Below are positions 20,108 through 26,646 of a stretch of 44,584 bases of DNA, in pieces. Position 1 is the stretch's first letter. Each line of letters begins with the position of its first letter. The position numbers and the translations under genes are program-made. The stretch comes from an uncultured Candidatus Saccharibacteria bacterium (GTDB lineage: Bacteria; Patescibacteriota; Minisyncoccia; Phycocordibacterales; Phycocordibacteraceae). Below the pieces are notes generated by a model that saw nothing but the letters and a program-made list of their open reading frames with translations, was not told where the DNA came from and did no database searches. Where the stretch lies: NCBI GenBank assembly GCA_964469405.1, contig CAYXYP010000007.1:1-44584 (forward strand), given 5' to 3'.

Positions 20108-21580
20108 ATGATTAAGAATCACATGGGGTTCTTCGCACGAATATTTGGGAGTAGTAGGGAGTCGACTAATCGACTGCCACAAGTATTTTTCACCAATACC
20201 CTTTCCGGCCGTAAAGAAATTTTCGTATCTCAGACACCACGACTCGCGCTTATTTATTCGTGCGGACCAACCGTCTACGGCCGCGTGCATATCGGTAATC
20301 TCCGCGCGTACCTATTCTCAGATACAATTGCTCGCGTACTTACTGCGGCAGGATACCGCGTACAACGAGTCATGAATATCACGGATGTTGGCCACCTCGT
20401 TGGCGATGGCGACAATGGGGAGGACAAGATGGCTGTCGGTGCGGCAAAAGAGCGTACGACACCCGAAGCGATTGCTATCCGCTACACGAAGCTTTTTATT
20501 GAGGATATTGAGGAACTTAATTTTGATATTGGCGCCATACTTTTCCCCCGCGCGACCGAATATATCAACGAGCAAATAGCTCTCGCTAAAACTCTGGAGG
20601 AAAAGGGATATACGTATCGTCTTCCCGATGGTCTCTATTTCAATACGCAGGAATTTTCCGGTTATGGAAAGCTCGGCGGATTGTCTCAAATGAAACTTGA
20701 GGCTGGTGCACGCATTAAGGTCGTCGAGGGGAAACGTCATCCTGCAGACTTCGTCCTCTGGAGGGCAGCTAAACCGGAAGATCTTCAGCAGTGGGACAGT
20801 CCGTGGGGTCGTGGCAATCCAGGTTGGCATATCGAATGTTCAGCCATGGCACGAGCACTACTTGGACAAGAAATAGATATCCACACCGGAGGGGAGGATC
20901 TTTCGCAAATACATCACAACAATGAAATTGCCCAATCTGAAGCTGCCTCCGGACGGCCGTTTGTCCATTATTGGATGCACAATGCCTTCATTACTATGAA
21001 AGGGGAAAAAATTTCTAAATCTCTTGGTAATGTCGTATATCTTTCTGATATCGTCACAAAAGGATTCCACCCGCTCTCATTGCGTTACTTCTTTCTTCAG
21101 GCCCATTATCGCACTCCCCTCTCCTTCTCATGGGATGCCCTTACAGGTGCCGCAAGTGCACTTGACCGGATATGGAAAATCTCGATCGAAATTGCAGAGG
21201 AATCTAGGCGCAAGAGCGCGCCTTCCGAGGCGCGCGAACGCTTCCTTGGGGTCATGCGGGACGACCTAGGGACTCCCCAAGCACTGAGCGTTCTTTGGGA
21301 TTCTCTCAAGAGCGAGGAGTACACGGCTAAAGAAAAGTGGGGTCTCTTGGAAGATGCCGAGGCTCATCTCGGTCTCTCACTTCTTCATCCGCCTGTTCGC
21401 AATACTCTTTTGGAAAAAGATGTGCCTAAAGAGGTACAGAATTTGCTAAAAGCACGTATGGCGGCACGCACGGCTCAAGATTTTAAAGAAGCCGACCGTA
21501 TCCGGGGCGAAATCCTACGCAGGGGATATCGTGTGGATGACGGGCCGGACGGACCTATGTTGACTCAGACGACTCTTTGA
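20108..21580 (+). CDS. cysS: Cysteine--tRNA ligase
   Basis: CGPTVY, HIGN, PGWHIECSAM, HHNNE and KISKS. Confidence 0.95.
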   Translation: MIKNHMGFFARIFGSSRESTNRLPQVFFTNTLSGRKEIFVSQTPRLALIYSCGPTVYGRVHIGNLRAYLFSDTIARVLTAAGYRVQRVMNITDVGHLVGDGDNGEDKMAVGAAKERTTPEAIAIRYTKLFIEDIEELNFDIGAILFPRATEYINEQIALAKTLEEKGYTYRLPDGLYFNTQEFSGYGKLGGLSQMKLEAGARIKVVEGKRHPADFVLWRAAKPEDLQQWDSPWGRGNPGWHIECSAMARALLGQEIDIHTGGEDLSQIHHNNEIAQSEAASGRPFVHYWMHNAFITMKGEKISKSLGNVVYLSDIVTKGFHPLSLRYFFLQAHYRTPLSFSWDALTGAASALDRIWKISIEIAEESRRKSAPSEARERFLGVMRDDLGTPQALSVLWDSLKSEEYTAKEKWGLLEDAEAHLGLSLLHPPVRNTLLEKDVPKEVQNLLKARMAARTAQDFKEADRIRGEILRRGYRVDDGPDGPMLTQTTL

Positions 21581-21594
21581 TACAATCAGTAGCA

Positions 21595-22962
21595 ATGGCT
21601 GCTACCACCCGGGATAGAATCCCTCCGCAATCTCTTGAATCCGAGCGCGCCCTCTTGGGCGCGCTGCTTCTCAAACCTGATGCCATTCACGACGTTTCAG
21701 ATCTCATCCATCCCGATTCTTTCTACGCGGAAAAGCATCGGCTCATATTCAGCGCGATGCGTGAACTCGCAGACCGAGGCGAGCCAATTGATCAACTTTC
21801 TCTCTCCGAACGCCTGCAAAATCAGGGGTTACTCGAGCGCAGCGGCAGTCGAAGCTATTTGGCTGAACTTGCCGGCTCAGCACCAGCTCCCGGGAACTTC
21901 TCTCATTATGCCGATCTCGTATCGCGTAAGTTCCTCATGCGTTCTCTCATTGACGCTGCGTACAGTATTTCTGAATCCGCCTACGACGATGCGCGAGAAA
22001 CGATGGAAGTGCTCGATGAGGCCGAGAAAAGTATCTATGCCATTGGTAATGCTTCGGCTGCGCACAAGTTCACTGCTATTGGCGATAAAGTGCACGAGGC
22101 ATGGGATCGTATCGAAGCACTCTCCAAGAAAGAGGATGGCATCCGCGGAGTGCCCTCTGGCTTTCCCACTCTTGATAATTTACTCTCGGGCTTTCATCCG
22201 TCCGATCTCATTATCCTCGCCGCCCGTCCCTCGATGGGTAAAACATCGCTTGCGCTCGATATTGCACGAAATGCCGCCGTACGACATAACGTCCCCGTCG
22301 GTATTTTCTCACTTGAAATGAGTTCGGAGCAACTCATCGATCGTATGCTTGCAGCAGAATCGTTCGTCAATTCTTGGAAACTCCGCACGGGACAAGTAAA
22401 GGAGGAAGAGGATTTCAACCGAATACGAGATGCACTCGAGACGCTTTCGAAAGCCCCAATATTCATCGACGACAAGCCCGGTAATAATATTCTTGCGATG
22501 CGTGCAGTGGCTAGGCGACTGAAACGTGAGCGCGGTATCGGACTTATTGTCGTCGACTATCTCCAACTTATGGCGCCGACCTCGACAAAAGCTTCTGATT
22601 CTATGGTCCAACAAGTGACTGAAATTTCACGCTCCTTGAAGTCGCTCGCACGCGAGCTCGAGGTTCCGGTTATTGCTCTCTCGCAGCTCTCGCGTGCGGT
22701 GGAACAGCGTGGTGGCAAACCTCGTCTATCGGATTTGCGCGATTCCGGCTCCATTGAGCAAGATGCCGATGTTGTGATGTTCATTCACCGCGAAGATAAG
22801 CGTAATCCCGAGAGTGACCGGCCAGGCATTGCTGAAATCCTCATAGAGAAGCACCGCAATGGTCCCACAGGCAGTACCGAACTCTTTTTTGACGAAAAAC
22901 GAGCTACTTTCCAGCCAGTCGATACAGCCGGATACGGAGATCTCGCTTCAGAATTCAAATAA
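21595..22962 (+). CDS. dnaB: Replicative DNA helicase
   Basis: PPQSLESE, AARPSMGKT, VDYLQL, LSQLSRAVE and DLRDSGSIEQDAD; no intein seen. Confidence 0.97.
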   Translation: MAATTRDRIPPQSLESERALLGALLLKPDAIHDVSDLIHPDSFYAEKHRLIFSAMRELADRGEPIDQLSLSERLQNQGLLERSGSRSYLAELAGSAPAPGNFSHYADLVSRKFLMRSLIDAAYSISESAYDDARETMEVLDEAEKSIYAIGNASAAHKFTAIGDKVHEAWDRIEALSKKEDGIRGVPSGFPTLDNLLSGFHPSDLIILAARPSMGKTSLALDIARNAAVRHNVPVGIFSLEMSSEQLIDRMLAAESFVNSWKLRTGQVKEEEDFNRIRDALETLSKAPIFIDDKPGNNILAMRAVARRLKRERGIGLIVVDYLQLMAPTSTKASDSMVQQVTEISRSLKSLARELEVPVIALSQLSRAVEQRGGKPRLSDLRDSGSIEQDADVVMFIHREDKRNPESDRPGIAEILIEKHRNGPTGSTELFFDEKRATFQPVDTAGYGDLASEFK

Positions 22963-22987
22963 TAATCTGCACGACTGAATACACTTC

Positions 22988-23590
22988 ATGGACCATATTG
23001 ACGAACTCGCTCATGCGCTCTCCCGTCTCCCGGGTATCGGTCCCCGACAAGGAAAACGTTTTGTGTTCTATCTTCTTGCGGCTCCTGCCGCTGAGCGAAC
23101 CAAACTCGCGGAACTCATAGCGTCACTCGGGAAAGACGTCCGCCAATGCCCCGAGTGTCTGCGTTTCTATAATGGTTCTGCCGCTGTAATGTGCAATTAC
23201 TGTTCTGACATAAAACGTGATGATACTCTTTTGATGATTATTGAAAAAGATCAGGACCTCGCTGCTATCGAGCGTGCTGGTACCTATCGTGGCCGTTATT
23301 TCGTCCTTGGTGGCGTGCTGACACTCACAGGGAAAGGCGCGATTCGTGGGAAGGAGCTACTACGAACAATTGAGAAGAGACTAAAAAATAATTTAAAAGA
23401 GATCGTGCTCGCACTTTCGGCGACAAGCGAAGGTGAGCATACTGCCGATCATGTGCGAGAATTACTCGCGCCCTATCGTGACACCGTAAAAACTTCAGTC
23501 CTTGGTCGCGGTCTTGCGACCGGTAGCGAACTTGAATACTCTGACGCCGAAACCCTCCGCGCCGCGCTCACCAACCGTAAAGAAACCTGA
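22988..23590 (+). CDS. recR: Recombination mediator RecR
   Basis: LPGIGP, C4 zinc finger CPEC...CNYC, YFVLGG and ELEYSD. Confidence 0.94.
   Translation: MDHIDELAHALSRLPGIGPRQGKRFVFYLLAAPAAERTKLAELIASLGKDVRQCPECLRFYNGSAAVMCNYCSDIKRDDTLLMIIEKDQDLAAIERAGTYRGRYFVLGGVLTLTGKGAIRGKELLRTIEKRLKNNLKEIVLALSATSEGEHTADHVRELLAPYRDTVKTSVLGRGLATGSELEYSDAETLRAALTNRKET
23493..23590 (+). repeat. Direct repeat copy 1 (3' end of recR)
   Basis: 98 nt, 90/98 identical to 24351-24448, with the first 61 nt identical. Confidence 0.95.
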
Positions 23591-23593
23591 TTC

Positions 23594-23628
23594 TATACAT
23601 GAAGGGTTTCGTAAACCCTTCATGTATA
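23594..23628. repeat. Left REP-like hairpin
   Basis: tatacatgaagggttt-cgt-aaacccttcatgtata, a perfect 16-bp stem. Confidence 0.9.
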
Positions 23629-23640
23629 ATGATGAGTAAA

Positions 23641-24324
23641 ATGAATTTGTGGCATGTACTAAACCGAGGTGTTGAAGGACGCGACCTTTTCCTAGATTCG
23701 CAAGATTATGCACGCTTCGTTCACAACCTCTATGAGTTTAATGATAGCGCTCCAGCCGATAATCTCTCACGGCTTTTTGATCCGTCTGGAATAAGGGATT
23801 TCGTAAACCCCTCATTTAGAAAAGCACGCGAGCGATTAGTGGATATTCATGGCTGGGTCTTGATGAAAAACCACTATCACCTTTTACTCTCTGAACGTAT
23901 CGAGGGCGGTATTAGTCTATTCCTTCGTAAACTGAATGTCGGTTATGCGAATTATTTCAACGAACGATATAGACGAAAGGGGACGTTATTTCAAGGCCGT
24001 ACCAAGAAAATCTTAGTTGAGCGCGAATCGCATTTCCTTTACATTCTTCATTATCTTCACCTTAATCCACTTGATTATTTACAGGGCGCGCAAGAATGGC
24101 GTGCGCGTAGCAAGAGCGGCATTCGGAATGCAAACGAGGCGCTAGATTATCTTGATTCATACCGATGGAGCAGTTATCTTGACTATATCGACAAGAAGAA
24201 CTTCCCTTCCATCCTTACTACTTCGTTTTTTAAAGAAGCGCTTGATGATTATCAAGGTTCACTTAGAGAATACCTTGGCGATGCCGAGCATGATAATATT
24301 ATTGTAAAATTGACTTTGGAATGA
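23641..24324 (+). CDS. REP-associated tyrosine transposase (RAYT / Y1 HUH family); start may be 23632
   Basis: WHVLNRG, LMKNHYHLL (HUH), YFNERY-x3-GTLFQGR, YLHLNP and YRWSSY. Confidence 0.9.
   Translation: MNLWHVLNRGVEGRDLFLDSQDYARFVHNLYEFNDSAPADNLSRLFDPSGIRDFVNPSFRKARERLVDIHGWVLMKNHYHLLLSERIEGGISLFLRKLNVGYANYFNERYRRKGTLFQGRTKKILVERESHFLYILHYLHLNPLDYLQGAQEWRARSKSGIRNANEALDYLDSYRWSSYLDYIDKKNFPSILTTSFFKEALDDYQGSLREYLGDAEHDNIIVKLTLE
23791..23815. repeat. Degenerate REP-like copy inside the transposase coding sequence
   Basis: ataagggatttcgtaaacccctcat compared with atgaagggtttcgtaaacccttcat. Confidence 0.75.
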
Positions 24325-24347
24325 AGGGTTTACGAAACCCTTCATTC
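24319..24347. repeat. Right REP-like hairpin (inverted copy of the left)
   Basis: gaatgaagggttt-acg-aaacccttcattc, a 13-bp stem; its 25-nt core is the exact reverse complement of 23599-23623. Confidence 0.9.
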
Positions 24348-24350
24348 TGT

Positions 24351-24448
24351 CTTCAGTCCTTGGTCGCGGTCTTGCGACCGGTAGCGAACTTGAATACTCT
24401 GACGCCGAAACTCTCCGCGCTGCCCTCACCAACCGCAAAGAAGCTTAG
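24351..24448 (+). pseudogene. Orphan duplicate of the recR 3' end (direct repeat copy 2)
   Basis: Reads SVLGRGLATGSELEYSDAETLRAALTNRKEA*, with no upstream gene body. Confidence 0.9.
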
Positions 24449-24889
24449 TTAGACCTTTCCCTCTCCAGTCTGTTTCACTTCTACTGTCACTTTTGGAATA
24501 CCATCTCCATGCGCCGATGCGGCTATAATTTCCTGCACTTTAGCGACTATTTCTTTTGGATCGTACTGGCTCTTTACCAGATAGAGTACCGCCCCTAAGC
24601 TTAAGCCATTTTCAGCGTCGCTGTCGCCAGCCAAGTTGGTAAGCATGATGACGGGAATGCTTTTGAGTTTCTCGTCCTCTTTTACCTTACGCAATACATC
24701 AAAGCCGTTCATTTTTGGCATCATGACATCGAGTAATATTACAGCCGGTTTTTCTTCTGTTTTTTGTAATACTGCGAGAGCTTCTTCCCCATCGTGCGCC
24801 ATCGTGAGCTCGTGTCCGCCAAGACGGAATGCCCGCTCGTACATACGACTCATCAAAGGATCATCTTCTGCCATGAATAGTTTTGCCAT
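24449..24889 (-). CDS. Single-domain (CheY-like) response regulator
   Basis: MAEDD, ILLDVMMP, LTN and YLVKS; TATACT 7 nt before the ATG. Confidence 0.92.
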   Translation of the reverse strand: MAKLFMAEDDPLMSRMYERAFRLGGHELTMAHDGEEALAVLQKTEEKPAVILLDVMMPKMNGFDVLRKVKEDEKLKSIPVIMLTNLAGDSDAENGLSLGAVLYLVKSQYDPKEIVAKVQEIIAASAHGDGIPKVTVEVKQTGEGKV

Positions 24890-24915
24890 AGTCGTAAGTA
24901 TACTATACCTTGATA

Positions 24916-26646
24916 TCACTCGGAAATAGGCAGTGTGAACACGAAGGTACTTCCCTTGCCAAGCTCACTCTTCTCAATTCCTATGGTACCACCCATGCTC
25001 GAGATAATGAGTTTAGAAATATAAAGACCGAGACCGGTGCTCTGGGTAACGTCTCGTGCAAGCATCTGCTCTCCCGCCTGCTGGAACTTCCTGAAGAGCA
25101 GTGCTTGATTATGTTCTGAAATACCAAGACCAGTATCAATAACCCGTATACCGATGAAGTTACCTGCCACACTGGCTGTAATAGTAATACCGCCTTCTTT
25201 CGTAAATTTTGCCGCATTACCCACAAGATTAACGAGGATTTGTTCGGTTCTATTCTTGTCGGCAAACACGATAGGCAAAGGAGATGGCGGTGCGATATAC
25301 ACAAGGGACAACCCTTTCTGTTCGTCCATAGTTTTGAGATCGCGTACCACCTTTTCAACCACGTCAGACACATTGAAATTCTCTTTTTTAATTTCGATTT
25401 TACCTTGCTCAAGACGAGACACTTCAAGAAAGTCGTTCACGATATTGATGAGCCGAACACTCGAAGTATCGATATCTTGAAGCATTTCTTTCATATCTTT
25501 GTCGACTATTTTGTCTGTATACATCTCTAACATCATGTCTGCATTACCGCGTATGGCGGTAAGTGGTGTGCGCAATTCGTGGGAAGCAACCGCAAAAAAT
25601 TCATCGCGACTCCGCTCCATGATTTTTGCTTCAGTAACGTCTTCAATAAGCATTGCGTAGCCAATAACCGTCTCTTGCATATCTTGCGACGTCTCGTTTT
25701 TCATGATGATAGGGGTACAAAAAACACGCAAATATTTTTTCCCGTGAGAAATTTCTTTCAATTCCACGACTTTTTTCAGATCGATGCACTCCCGACAAGA
25801 ATGTGTGAGGACATCGAGTCCGGATGTAACCCCTTTGAAGGAATCGATGATACTTTTCATCGAGACCGGTTCCTCGGTAAGTTCCAGGATGGTCGACAGC
25901 ACTGCGTTTTTTACGATGACGTTGTCATTAAGATCGGCAATGACGAACCCGAACGACAGGCTGTTTATGGAAGCGAGAAGACGAGCCTGCTCCTCCTGCA
26001 ATTCCTTGGTTTTCTCTTTGACTTTCTCATCTACTCTTTTCTTTTCAGATATGAGCATGCGCTCATATTCTTTATTCTTTGTCACGTCAGTCTCGAGTCC
26101 AACAAAAAATTTTAGTTCGCCCTTGGCATTGACGACGGGAGATATTACCGCGAACGCCGTATATGTCTCGCCATTTTTTTTCTTATTTTGCAATTCACCG
26201 GCAAAGGTCTTTTTTTCATCTTTAATCGTCCGCCACATATCGGCATAAAACTCCTTCGGCATCTGCTTCCCCCACAATGATGGCTTACTACCTATTATTT
26301 CCTCATGCGAGTATCCGGTCAGTTTCTCCACTGCTTGGTTCGCATAAATGACAACACCGCTAGCGTCGGTAATGACAACGTGCTGGGACGTATTTTCAAC
26401 GACAAGCTGAAACTTCTGCAATTCTTCCGCTCTTTCTTCCGACTTTTTCTTTTCTTCGGAAAGATCGTCAAGTAAATTTAGTGTCGCTTTTTTTGTATTT
26501 TCCAAATCAATCAGTTTCTCTTGCAATTCCTTATTGATGCTCCCCAGCTCAGCGGATCTTTTTTGCAACTGGAACTCGGCCTTTCCCAAGGCTTTTTTCA
26601 TCTCATCGAACTCTTTCAATAAATTTTGAATTTCATCAAGAGCCAT
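24916..26646 (-). CDS. Soluble PAS-domain sensor histidine kinase
   Basis: Coiled coil, PAS (VITDASG...LTGYS), H-box SHELRTPL, N-box NLVGNAAKFT, DTGLGI and GLGL; no transmembrane segment seen. Confidence 0.92.
   Translation of the reverse strand: MALDEIQNLLKEFDEMKKALGKAEFQLQKRSAELGSINKELQEKLIDLENTKKATLNLLDDLSEEKKKSEERAEELQKFQLVVENTSQHVVITDASGVVIYANQAVEKLTGYSHEEIIGSKPSLWGKQMPKEFYADMWRTIKDEKKTFAGELQNKKKNGETYTAFAVISPVVNAKGELKFFVGLETDVTKNKEYERMLISEKKRVDEKVKEKTKELQEEQARLLASINSLSFGFVIADLNDNVIVKNAVLSTILELTEEPVSMKSIIDSFKGVTSGLDVLTHSCRECIDLKKVVELKEISHGKKYLRVFCTPIIMKNETSQDMQETVIGYAMLIEDVTEAKIMERSRDEFFAVASHELRTPLTAIRGNADMMLEMYTDKIVDKDMKEMLQDIDTSSVRLINIVNDFLEVSRLEQGKIEIKKENFNVSDVVEKVVRDLKTMDEQKGLSLVYIAPPSPLPIVFADKNRTEQILVNLVGNAAKFTKEGGITITASVAGNFIGIRVIDTGLGISEHNQALLFRKFQQAGEQMLARDVTQSTGLGLYISKLIISSMGGTIGIEKSELGKGSTFVFTLPISE

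Follow-up and report, generated by a model that had tools for sequence, protein, structure and literature searches.

RAYTs are generally regarded as immobile, domesticated genes, and long target duplications are, to our knowledge, not known from Y1/HUH transposases of the IS200 or RAYT type. One-ended or read-through transposition that captures flanking DNA is a feature of IS91, ISCR and Helitrons, which use Y2 or Rep-type enzymes and rolling-circle replication. Class 2 RAYTs are recognized by the HUH motif together with a catalytic tyrosine in the context Y-x-x-x-N-P, and the IS200 group by the context Y-x-x-x-Q (PMC6006769). RAYT genes are described as single copy per genome and vertically inherited (PMC5581495). 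Prophage e14 is flanked on one side by icd, which extends into the prophage, and on the other by the C-terminal pseudogene icdC (PMC13626634). The RAYT literature that we consulted makes no mention of flanking duplicated gene ends, and a literature search for RAYT or IS200 elements in the Candidate Phyla Radiation/Patescibacteria gave nothing relevant. Here we analyze a stretch of 44,584 nucleotides from an uncultured Candidatus Saccharibacteria bacterium (hereafter, the window), in which a RAYT-class cassette lies between two copies of the 3' end of recR.

The recR gene of the window has 3124 homologues at E<=1e-20, the closest 83–100% identical, and is followed by a 747-nt cassette and by a second, orphan copy of its own end (Table 1). 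The two copies form a 98-nt direct repeat (23493-23590 and 24351-24448) whose left boundary is sharp, because the base directly left of each copy differs (A versus T). Repeat positions 1–61 are the same; the mismatches that follow, at positions 62, 71, 74, 86, 93, 95, 97 and 98, keep the RecR frame. Four of the affected codon pairs are synonymous (ACC/ACT, GCC/GCT, GCG/GCC, CGT/CGC), one replaces Thr by Ala (ACC/GCT) and one replaces a stop by a stop (TGA/TAG). A first-pass annotation, made from the sequence alone, had described this repeat of 61 identical nucleotides and eight mismatches, with these mismatch types; direct comparison of the two copies and of their recR-frame codons reproduced it exactly, and the terminal hairpins that it placed 3 nt from each copy are real (z-scores in Table 1). 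The small hairpin that it noted inside the identical block also exists; it is unexceptional (z -1.0) and its arms are non-complementary in the related loci L014 and L095, and it was rejected as a functional site and looks incidental. The last 37 nt of recR (tail 1) are followed by TTCTATAC and then by hairpin L, and the stop codon of the orphan tail (tail 2) adjoins that of a convergent response-regulator gene.

Table 1. Features of the recR locus, numbered as positions in the window
Feature	Position	Strand	Remarks
recR, 200 aa as now read	22988..23590	+	Ends in the putatively imported tail; Pfam RecR_HhH, Toprim_4, RecR_C
Identical block, copy 1, 61 nt	23493..23553	+	Putative crossover region; 100% identical to 24351-24411; also the same in sister strains
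Tail 1, distal recR tail in use (...LRAALTNRKET, TGA)	23554..23590	+	Probably arrived with the cassette; 3 nt from hairpin L
Hairpin L, 16-nt arms, 3-nt loop	23594..23628		Arms 23594-23609/23613-23628; 25-nt core 23599-23623; -14.9 kcal/mol, z -9.5
Y1/HUH transposase, REP-associated class, 227 aa from family-consensus start MNLWH	23641..24324	+	Pfam Y1_Tnp, NCBIfam REP_Tyr_transpos
Internal copy of the hairpin sequence within the transposase ORF, encoding IRDFVNPS	23791..23815	+	21/25 identical to hairpin L
Hairpin R, 13-nt arms, overlapping the transposase stop codon	24319..24347		Arms 24319-24331/24335-24347; core 24321-24345; -12.8 kcal/mol, z -7.1
TGT, three bases between hairpin R and the orphan repeat	24348..24350		Junction of the cassette end with recR position -98
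Identical block, copy 2, 61 nt, first part of the orphan recR end	24351..24411	+	Sequence identity to copy 1
Tail 2, orphan distal recR tail (...LRAALTNRKEA, TAG)	24412..24448	+	Probable former host end; exactly the recR end of the cassette-free L090, L091 and X20 contigs
Response-regulator gene, convergent neighbour of recR	24449..24919	-	Pfam Response_reg; outside the element, marks the host side; directly after recR in empty-site contigs

The cassette consists of a RAYT-class Y1/HUH transposase gene and two perfect 25-nt hairpins in inverted orientation, the cores of which are perfect reverse complements of each other. The longest transposase ORF starts at 23599, within hairpin L, and a TATAAT box (23624-23629, by direct reading of the sequence) overlaps the 3' arm of the same hairpin; a scan for promoter and terminator consensus sequences returned nothing at the hairpins, and an Rfam scan of 23300-24600 gave no match at E<=1. 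Hairpins are present on both sides in nearly all of 150 related loci, with a relative orientation that varies among relatives (direct in L014), and a compensatory double change in hairpin L is found in L092-L094 (GAAGGG/CCCTTC to GATGGG/CCCATC). The catalytic motifs H81-Y-H83 and Y141-L-H-L-N145-P146 are invariant in an alignment of 33 homologues. A total of 2354 transposase homologues were retrieved, of which the best 120 are 68–84% identical and mostly unnamed metagenomic proteins; the few with names come from Kaiserbacteria and Paceibacterota. AlphaFold2 applied to the 33-sequence alignment gave a mean pLDDT of 48.8, too poor for a fold search. Of the ORFs of at least 40 aa situated entirely between the two repeats, all but that of the transposase are short overlapping frames that match no family, and no site-specific tyrosine or serine recombinase is encoded there.

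Comparison with the RAYT/TnpA-REP group reveals both shared and distinct features. The HUH motif and the tyrosine in the class 2 context Y-x-x-x-N-P are shared, as are the position of the gene between two inverted copies of one palindrome and the weak matches to Pfam Y1_Tnp (24.0 bits, barely above the cut-off of 23) and to NCBIfam REP_Tyr_transpos. Hairpin doublets without a transposase gene, joined by CAG or CTG, reach high depth in the same metagenomes and may or may not stem from this genome. In contrast, the curated REP_Tyr_transpos cut-off is far from reached (34.5 versus 80 bits), and a PDB profile search with the family alignment found no chain at E<=1. The protein is also distinguished by its length of ~225 aa with a long conserved C-terminal part, and several related MAGs hold two or three diverged transposase copies, making the family multi-copy in relatives. 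No further hairpin copy with up to three mismatches exists in the remaining 43.7 kb of the 44.6-kb window, and the copy inside the ORF is a further difference. Across 80 loci this internal copy matches the hairpin of its own flank at 21.6 of 25 positions on average and foreign hairpins at 14.5 of 25; in the window it gives no folding signal (z 0.13). The RAYT label of the first-pass annotation is thus upheld by the HUH and Y-x-x-x-N-P motifs and the hairpin flanks, and falls short on the curated score.

The IS200 group is similar in its size of ~0.75 kb, its single Y1 transposase gene with terminal or subterminal hairpins, its several copies per genome and the frequent breakage of contigs within the element, but here the tyrosine context is Y-LHL-NP rather than Y---Q, and copies within one genome are diverged rather than near-identical. 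IS200/IS605 elements neither duplicate their target nor bring along the ends of host genes, whereas an identical block followed by a diverged gene tail is found here at 15 or more loci; likewise, their fixed 4–5-nt target contrasts with the 98-nt duplication and the lack of a common junction motif observed here.

Structural evidence was drawn from unitigs (k = 31) and contigs, and the 61-nt block is longer than the word sizes of the assemblers. Such an arrangement could in principle be produced by assembly, if two strains with different recR ends, one of them with the cassette downstream, were threaded through the 61-nt block, or if an empty chromosome coexisted with a free 858-bp circle. Because the block exceeds k, an integrated cassette and an empty site accompanied by a circle do indeed give one and the same unitig graph, and the sequence of the circle junction equals that of the integrated right junction, the two being indistinguishable in unitigs. 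We nevertheless consider an artefact very improbable. The integrated order is present in at least eight metaSPAdes contigs from different Hainich groundwater samples and assemblies, at coverage of up to 550x, and a single unitig (23524-24380) spans the junction of hairpin R and the orphan block in runs X1, X2, X3 and X6 at the depth of the cassette. In four runs the block is a unitig to itself, about twice as deep as the flanks (121 versus 62/50/71, 560 versus 267–303, 216 versus 94–109, and 59 versus 30–32), and the depths of flank, cassette and block stand at 1:1:2 in runs X3, X6 and X24. Since the structure is unchanged in the nine contigs fetched from different Hainich assemblies and the block has about double depth, the structure of the window is confirmed as real.

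Cassette-free alleles were found in other samples at low coverage (~2–3x): three contigs (L090, L091 and one in run X20) equal the window minus exactly 858 bp. The first-pass annotation had proposed a comparison of recR ends in relatives lacking the transposase gene, and these contigs carry one tail only, the orphan tail. The exact transposase protein has no record in the samples that yielded L090 and L091. As judged by sequence, the empty sites could be either ancestral or products of excision. In run X1 the depth of the cassette unitig (49.7), compared with the flanks (62 and 71) and the block (121), fits a population with 20–30% empty genomes. Among the runs looked at, no high-depth run was without the cassette: all good-depth runs hold it, X24 in the form of a variant allele. 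The locus is, on these alignments, a presence/absence polymorphism of a RAYT-class cassette in a natural population.

Filled and empty alleles have no difference over ~900 nt upstream of 23554 and eight, mostly silent, in the 37 nt beyond it, so that tail 1 cannot have formed in place. In sister strains L092-L094 the cassette is accompanied by yet another synonymous tail (tail 3), and in L093 the differences from the window are confined to 23554-23826, beginning exactly at 23554. Tail 1 differs at eight positions from tail 2, at eight from tail 3 and at five from the tail of a more distant relative, L095. Comparison of these alleles shows tail 1 to be foreign, and indicates that it came with the cassette and that tail 2 is the former recR end of the host. 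No donor combining tail 1 with a different recR body was present among the fetched loci, L095 having merely the most similar tail, and GTDB relatives with recR upstream of a transposase gene each have a single recR tail.

Direct repeats at mobile DNA are usually target duplications, and the identity of the first 61 nt would agree with a cassette that inserted at the recR end, with 98 host nucleotides duplicated by the insertion or by a later slip and the two copies diverging by drift. Against this, it is the orphan, and not the tail in use, that matches the cassette-free allele, in a locus where filled and cassette-free alleles otherwise differ at only 0–2 positions. The eight mismatches are moreover clustered in the last 37 of 98 nt (P = 2.5e-4 if placed at random), and the changes are mostly silent in both copies: at least five of six sense-codon changes are silent (P = 0.008), where 28% of random changes there would be. 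With a third tail allele in an otherwise identical strain, and with a serine codon that differs at all three bases in the duplicated recR end of locus L126, we regard local duplication followed by drift as extremely improbable. The suggestion of the first-pass annotation that both tails had once been real recR ends is supported by the eight mostly silent changes in 37 nt and by the presence of tail 2 at the recR end of the cassette-free contigs.

The gene-end duplication is not confined to the window. Relatives show the same anatomy, newly described here, at the ends of further genes: no fewer than 15 related cassettes, from Paceibacteria genomes and from metagenomes, lie between two copies of the end of recR, RNase R, SMC, a DEAD-box helicase or another helicase, with an identical block against the cassette end and then a synonymously diverged tail. 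RNase R ends are duplicated in L022, L024, L032, L136, L146 and L165, SMC ends in L143, L146 and L165, and DEAD-box helicase ends in L011, L103, L105-L107, L112, L116 and L123; in L012 the other helicase has 36 identical nucleotides, after which the copies read MR* versus MKN*. Two further recR loci, L111 and L126, have boundaries ~-57 to -67 and -45 from the stop, compared with -98 in the window, and the two tails of L126 have 20 nt in common followed by silent changes that include TCC/AGT, both serine. A 26-nt identical core with silent differences on either side is found in L116, a pattern that a crossover between diverged genes should produce. At all duplicated loci the orphan adjoins a cassette end, within ~0–26 nt, and its position is not tied to one end of the cassette or to one strand. 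Duplications at these related loci span 20–70 nt, and no duplicated tail is detectable in ~85–90% of the 150 related loci. Identical blocks of only 20–26 nt, as seen at some loci, are at the lower limit for RecA-type recombination.

Considering these patterns together, we think it probable that an 858-bp unit, composed of the last 98 nt of another lineage's recR and the 747-nt hairpin-bounded transposase cassette, integrated by a single crossover in the 61-nt block common to the unit and the host recR. The outcome would have a Campbell topology, in which the host recR body runs through the common block into the imported last 37 nt, while the host's own last 98 nt are stranded as an orphan beyond the other cassette end. 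As recR is kept intact, the insertion would be cheap for the host. A crossover in the identical block that left recR with a donor tail was also the proposal of the first-pass annotation, and it is the simplest reading of the empty form, of tail 3 and of the divergence of L093 from 23554 onward. The crossover itself may be the work of the host's homologous recombination machinery, for which a short identical block would suffice, and the unit may pass from strain to strain either in circular form or as part of a linear fragment. A tail could have been captured in the first place when the transposase or an illegitimate event joined the true cassette end to a site in the neighbouring gene. Such a join would amount to an aberrant, one-ended excision of a cassette that had simply been inserted between genes, as in L014.

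Two other routes were considered and rejected. Insertion of the cassette together with tail 2 after a native tail 1 is unparsimonious, as it requires an inserted piece that stops precisely at one recR stop codon and is placed precisely at another with no help from homology. For the first event, homology-facilitated illegitimate recombination of a linear fragment has the wrong topology, in which host DNA is exchanged or lost but never duplicated.

The transposase itself might instead integrate the unit. A single-stranded circle of recR tail and cassette would be cut at the true right end and at a surrogate site 98 nt upstream in recR, and the Y1 enzyme would insert it beside the same short target in a naive recR; the gene would be restored, target and left cleavage site being identical in sequence. 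IS200/IS605-type enzymes do insert beside a short sequence that flanks their left end (PMC6006769). One junction always lies a few bases from the true cassette end (3 nt after hairpin R in the window, 0–26 nt elsewhere), the HUH and Y-x-x-x-N-P motifs are kept invariant in the 33 homologues, the hairpins are maintained through compensatory change, and this route would also cover integration at loci with an identical block as short as 20 nt. On the other hand, no short motif is shared by the junctions of the window, L012, L022, L032, L111 and L126, the recR boundary is at a different place in each of the three recR loci, and an orphan at either cassette end and on either strand is not predicted by a left-end-specific mechanism. 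A cleavage site 98 nt from the hairpin is without precedent, and the constant perfect identity of the proximal block would be left unexplained. We therefore consider integration by the transposase unlikely; single-crossover recombination in the identical block, whether carried out by host recombination or by the transposase, appears most likely.

The perfect identity of the block deserves comment in its own right. A uniformly diverged donor should give mismatches within the 61-nt block as well, and because L095 differs from the window at 9 of these 61 positions, the identity needs an added assumption, either gene conversion or repeated cycling. In the latter case, a unit that is excised and re-integrated many times within a single species would have its recombining block homogenized with the host, and the densely mismatched distal tail would remain locked to the cassette.

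The anatomy is paralleled by e14 and phage 21 in icd/icdC and by islands in tRNA or tmRNA genes. An identical core, an element-borne and synonymously diverged 3' end that is now read, a pseudo-tail beyond the element that was once the host's own end, and an empty site composed of core and host tail are common to both, and excision of such elements alters only silent or conservative sites (PMC13626634). Unlike them, the unit here measures 858 bp in total, and the single protein that it encodes is a Y1 HUH enzyme rather than a tyrosine or serine integrase; the ends of several unrelated genes serve as targets, and the identical block varies in length (20–61 nt) and in position within one target gene, which points to homology rather than to a fixed att core. 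IS91, ISCR and Helitrons are similar in that one junction lies at the precise element end and the other at an arbitrary point in a neighbouring gene, with flanking host DNA joining the mobile unit; however, those elements do not home to the captured gene, and there is no sign of replication of the unit here.

More broadly, we tentatively hypothesize, as a possibility rather than an expectation, that the REP-class Y1/HUH cassettes of Paceibacteria are undescribed minimal integrative elements of ~0.75–0.9 kb whose att site is the 3' end of a conserved host gene. They would enter by recombination in a short identical block, swapping in their own gene end, and their own single-stranded DNA transposase may catalyse the tail capture or even a site-specific exchange, in which case it would do the work of an integrase although it is none. 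On that hypothesis both tails would be under selection, because the orphan returns to use whenever the unit leaves.

A RAYT-class member is here polymorphic at one locus and linked to a gene end of foreign origin that replaces the host's own, and several conserved genes in a whole group of ultra-small bacteria bear this signature. In practical terms, metagenome assemblies of such genomes can be expected to break or to be mis-threaded at these sites. The findings make a case either for homology-driven, Campbell-type mobility of a transposase cassette or for a new recombination activity of the RAYT class. If correct, the proposed integration would offer a very small element a route into gene-dense, streamlined genomes without gene breakage, and would account for local hypervariability in the final codons of recR and other conserved genes.

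The final 98 nt of recR recur downstream of a 747-nt hairpin-bounded cassette encoding a putative Y1 transposase. The two copies are identical over their initial 61 nt (the block); the other 37 nt, termed tail 1 in the recR end now in use and tail 2 in the orphan, carry 8 mismatches, of which four are silent third-position changes; the others turn ACC into GCT (Thr to Ala) and TGA into TAG. The left repeat boundary is sharp, the adjoining bases of the two copies being unlike. Were the 8 mismatches placed at random, the chance of all lying in those 37 nt would be P = 2.5e-4; for silence of at least 5 of the 6 sense-codon changes, P = 0.008. The ORF is enclosed by two strong hairpins (folding z-scores -9.5 and -7.1) with 25-nt cores that are perfect reverse complements of each other; 3 nt separate each hairpin from its adjoining repeat copy. 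Re-reading of the sequence, statistics and folding bore out the first-pass annotation's account of repeat, mismatches and hairpins in all details.

Coordinates and loci of the repeat, the cassette and related features (asterisk, stop codon)
Feature	Sequence	Position	Strand	Remarks
recR	window	22988-23590	+	Pfam RecR_HhH, Toprim, RecR_C
98-nt repeat	window	23493-23590; 24351-24448		
Block	window	23493-23553; 24351-24411		
Tail 1; tail 2	window	23554-23590; 24412-24448		
Transposase ORF	window	between repeat copies		227-241 aa; Pfam Y1_Tnp 24 bits; NCBIfam REP_Tyr_transpos 34.5 bits
Left-hairpin reading frame	window	23599-23640		opens with ATG, in frame with transposase, no stop
Internal hairpin copy	window	23791-23815		folding lost
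Degenerate DnaA-box-like motif	window	23589-23598		
Seven clustered substitutions	window	24839-24896		5' end of response-regulator gene
Terminal hairpins	L014	1631-1657; 2350-2376		direct
Other Y1 transposase gene	L095	3604-4372		
dnaB with intein	L096	343-2979		878 aa
Duplicated helicase end	L012		-	36 nt identical, then ...LMR* in use vs ...LMKN* orphan
Duplicated RNase R end	L022, L024, L032, L136, L146, L165			e.g. VMEKELDFIPV* vs VMEKELDFVPVT*
Duplicated SMC end	L143, L146, L165		-	
Duplicated DEAD-box helicase end	L011, L103, L105-L107, L112, L116, L123			
Duplicated recR end	L111, L126			boundaries about -57 to -67 and -45 from stop, vs -98 in window

Nine contigs (L001-L009; coverage up to 550x), drawn from different Hainich groundwater assemblies, contain the arrangement. 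Over a 1932-nt interval that takes in recR and the response-regulator gene, L001, L002 and L009 match the window throughout, and L003-L008 depart from it only within the response-regulator gene. Between the two main Hainich strains, this interval holds seven substitutions clustered within 58 nt, one at 24608 and no others. Among the Logan unitigs (k = 31), four runs give the block as a unitig of its own, about twice as deep as flanks and cassette, and a single unitig runs from tail 1 through the cassette to nt 30 of the second copy. By the unitig graph alone, the integrated form looks the same as an 858-bp circle (the cassette with one recR tail copy) beside an empty chromosome; all metaSPAdes contigs have the integrated order.

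recR 3' ends were compared with and without the transposase. Two contigs, L090 (ENA ERZ1300416) and L091 (Logan, another run), encode a RecR protein (P0122) that departs from that of the window only by its C-terminal Ala. Both contigs equal the window less exactly 858 bp; tail 2 ends recR, and its TAG adjoins the response-regulator gene stop. A contig of run X20 has the same empty joint, skipping 858 letters with 61 fitting either side. All three cassette-free contigs are of low coverage, and no high-depth run without the cassette was found. The exact window transposase protein is recorded only in Hainich ERZ12926xx assemblies and not in the source samples of L090 and L091. In run X1, the cassette unitig is at depth 49.7, the flanks are at 62 and 71 and the block is at 121, which fits a 20-30% empty subpopulation.

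Because the orphan is the empty-site allele, from which the tail in use departs at silent sites in an otherwise identical locus, tail 1 appears to have been imported with the cassette, and tail 2 would be the host's former recR end. The proposal that recR now ends with a donor tail was thereby upheld. A local duplication with subsequent drift is excluded, since it is the orphan, not the tail in use, that equals the empty-site allele, with differences at silent sites.

Further tails occur among related strains. In L092-L094, strains of well H43, recR ends in a third tail (...ALSNRKEA, TGA) and is followed by the cassette, whose hairpin stem shows a compensatory double change. L093 equals the window over 21144-23553 and 23827-24187, with all 22 differences falling within 23554-23826. 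Any two of the three tails differ at 8 of 37 positions, and the block and recR body are the same among these strains. L092 is about 12% diverged from the window over 21199-22332 (cysS, dnaB) and identical over 22333-23553, a switch reflecting either a strain-recombination mosaic or a chimeric assembly. The tail nearest to tail 1, with 5 differences, belongs to the more distant relative L095, whose block differs from that of the window at 9 of 61 positions. At the same recR/response-regulator junction, L095 (RecR 96% identical) has no orphan tail and another Y1 transposase gene, only 26% identical, on the opposite strand and with unrelated palindromes (TTCCACGCAGTCTGACTGCGTGGAA); the junction is a repeated landing place. 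In L096 (RecR 93% identical), dnaB contains an intein that bears a LAGLIDADG endonuclease domain; no intein is present in the window dnaB.

Both flanks of every fetched cassette were compared at the nucleotide and six-frame levels, and matches were then read. A gene end is duplicated across the cassette at no fewer than 15 distinct loci, and at L143, L146 and L165 both convergent gene ends are duplicated (the L143 RNase R tail was not scored). An identical block of 20-61 nt begins at the cassette end, on either end and either strand, and beyond it the tail has diverged in the manner of functional coding sequence. The recR tails of L126 share 20 nt, followed by GCG/GCC, CTC/CTT, TCC/AGT (both Ser), CGA/CGT, GAA/GAG, ACT/GCA and TAG/TAA; L116 has a 26-nt identical core with silent differences on either side. 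DEAD-box helicase orphans range from protein-level identity (L116) to decay (L106). Most cassettes lack a duplication, for example L014, which lies simply downstream of recR.

A circle of 98 nt of recR tail plus the cassette, entering by one crossover left of 23554, would yield exactly the observed order. Integration of an imported tail and cassette by a single crossover in the shared block is considered probable, short of certain, as the mechanism is read from anatomy and the empty sites come from low-coverage contigs. A linear fragment replacing host DNA cannot yield the duplication; a circular or equivalent intermediate is needed. Insertion of the cassette with tail 2 behind a native tail 1 was also rejected, as it would require a non-homologous event with ends coinciding twice with the recR stop codon. 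The identical block varies in length and in position, recR itself being no exception, and this favors recombination driven by homology over a fixed att core. Insertion of the unit beside a short target by the Y1 enzyme itself seems unlikely, given that no common junction motif is visible. One junction always lies at a true cassette end, and the opposite cassette end runs continuously into donor flank. This points to an aberrant, one-ended excision of a simple intergenic insertion as the event that originally picked up the tail, a step for which the transposase is an obvious, though unproven, candidate. A single crossover with a diverged donor leaves the perfect identity of the proximal block unexplained. 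Such identity could arise through repeated passage of the unit into and out of genomes of a single species, in which crossovers would swap the element's block for the host's as far as mismatches turn too dense, and the distal tail would remain locked to the cassette. The anatomy matches that of prophage e14 in icd, where icd runs on into the prophage, the opposite end holds a C-terminal pseudogene (icdC), and excision alters icd at silent and conservative sites (PMC13626634); unlike e14, the window unit has no integrase.

The ORF's Y1_Tnp and REP_Tyr_transpos matches are weak yet specific, the latter below its cut-off of 80 bits. In an alignment of 33 homologues (68-84% identical), H-Y-H and Y-L-H-L-N-P are invariant; Y---NP is the signature of class 2, REP-associated enzymes, and Y---Q that of IS200 transposases (Quentin et al., PMC6006769). 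By motif and hairpin flanks, the gene can be assigned to the RAYT class, albeit as a distant member, since a profile search found no solved structure for the family and structure prediction gave a poor model. Detectable family members number 2354, mostly unnamed metagenomic proteins; the few named ones come from Kaiserbacteria, Paceibacterota and other Patescibacteria. Several MAGs hold 2-3 diverged copies per genome, and of the roughly 150 loci retrieved, nearly all have palindromes on both sides.

The asymmetric loop shows the terminal hairpin pair to be inverted in the window and direct in L014. Codons 53-61 of each transposase gene copy its own flanking hairpin sequence, in the window and at 80 related loci (mean 21.6/25 against the own hairpin vs 14.5/25 against foreign ones; 25/25 at 14 loci), and the resulting peptide (RDFVNPS, RDFRNPS, RDFVGPS...) varies along with the hairpin. 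Owing to the in-frame ATG in the left hairpin, gene callers append an N-terminal extension (MKGFVNPSCIMMSK...), which repeats the internal FVNPS peptide and is also seen in several homologues. A DnaA-box-like motif (TTATCCACA, TTATTCACA) precedes the left hairpin by 5-10 nt at L103, L106, L116, L123 and others (16 of 155 loci vs 0.18 expected) and marks the true left cassette end in the closest relatives. Metagenome unitigs on window 23604-23623 and 24321-24343 link the two hairpins by CAG or CTG alone, without the transposase gene (X2, X3, X6, X9, X12, X24), at depths up to 195-285x vs 20-30x for this genome; these doublets look like REPIN-like or miniature derivatives.

A literature search for RAYT or IS200 elements in Patescibacteria or the Candidate Phyla Radiation turned up no relevant work. 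The RAYT papers examined portray single-copy, vertically inherited genes with REP flanks and do not describe duplicated gene ends. Gene-end-targeting integrative elements and RAYTs are each known separately; what is new here is a RAYT-class cassette that appears to act like such an integrative element.
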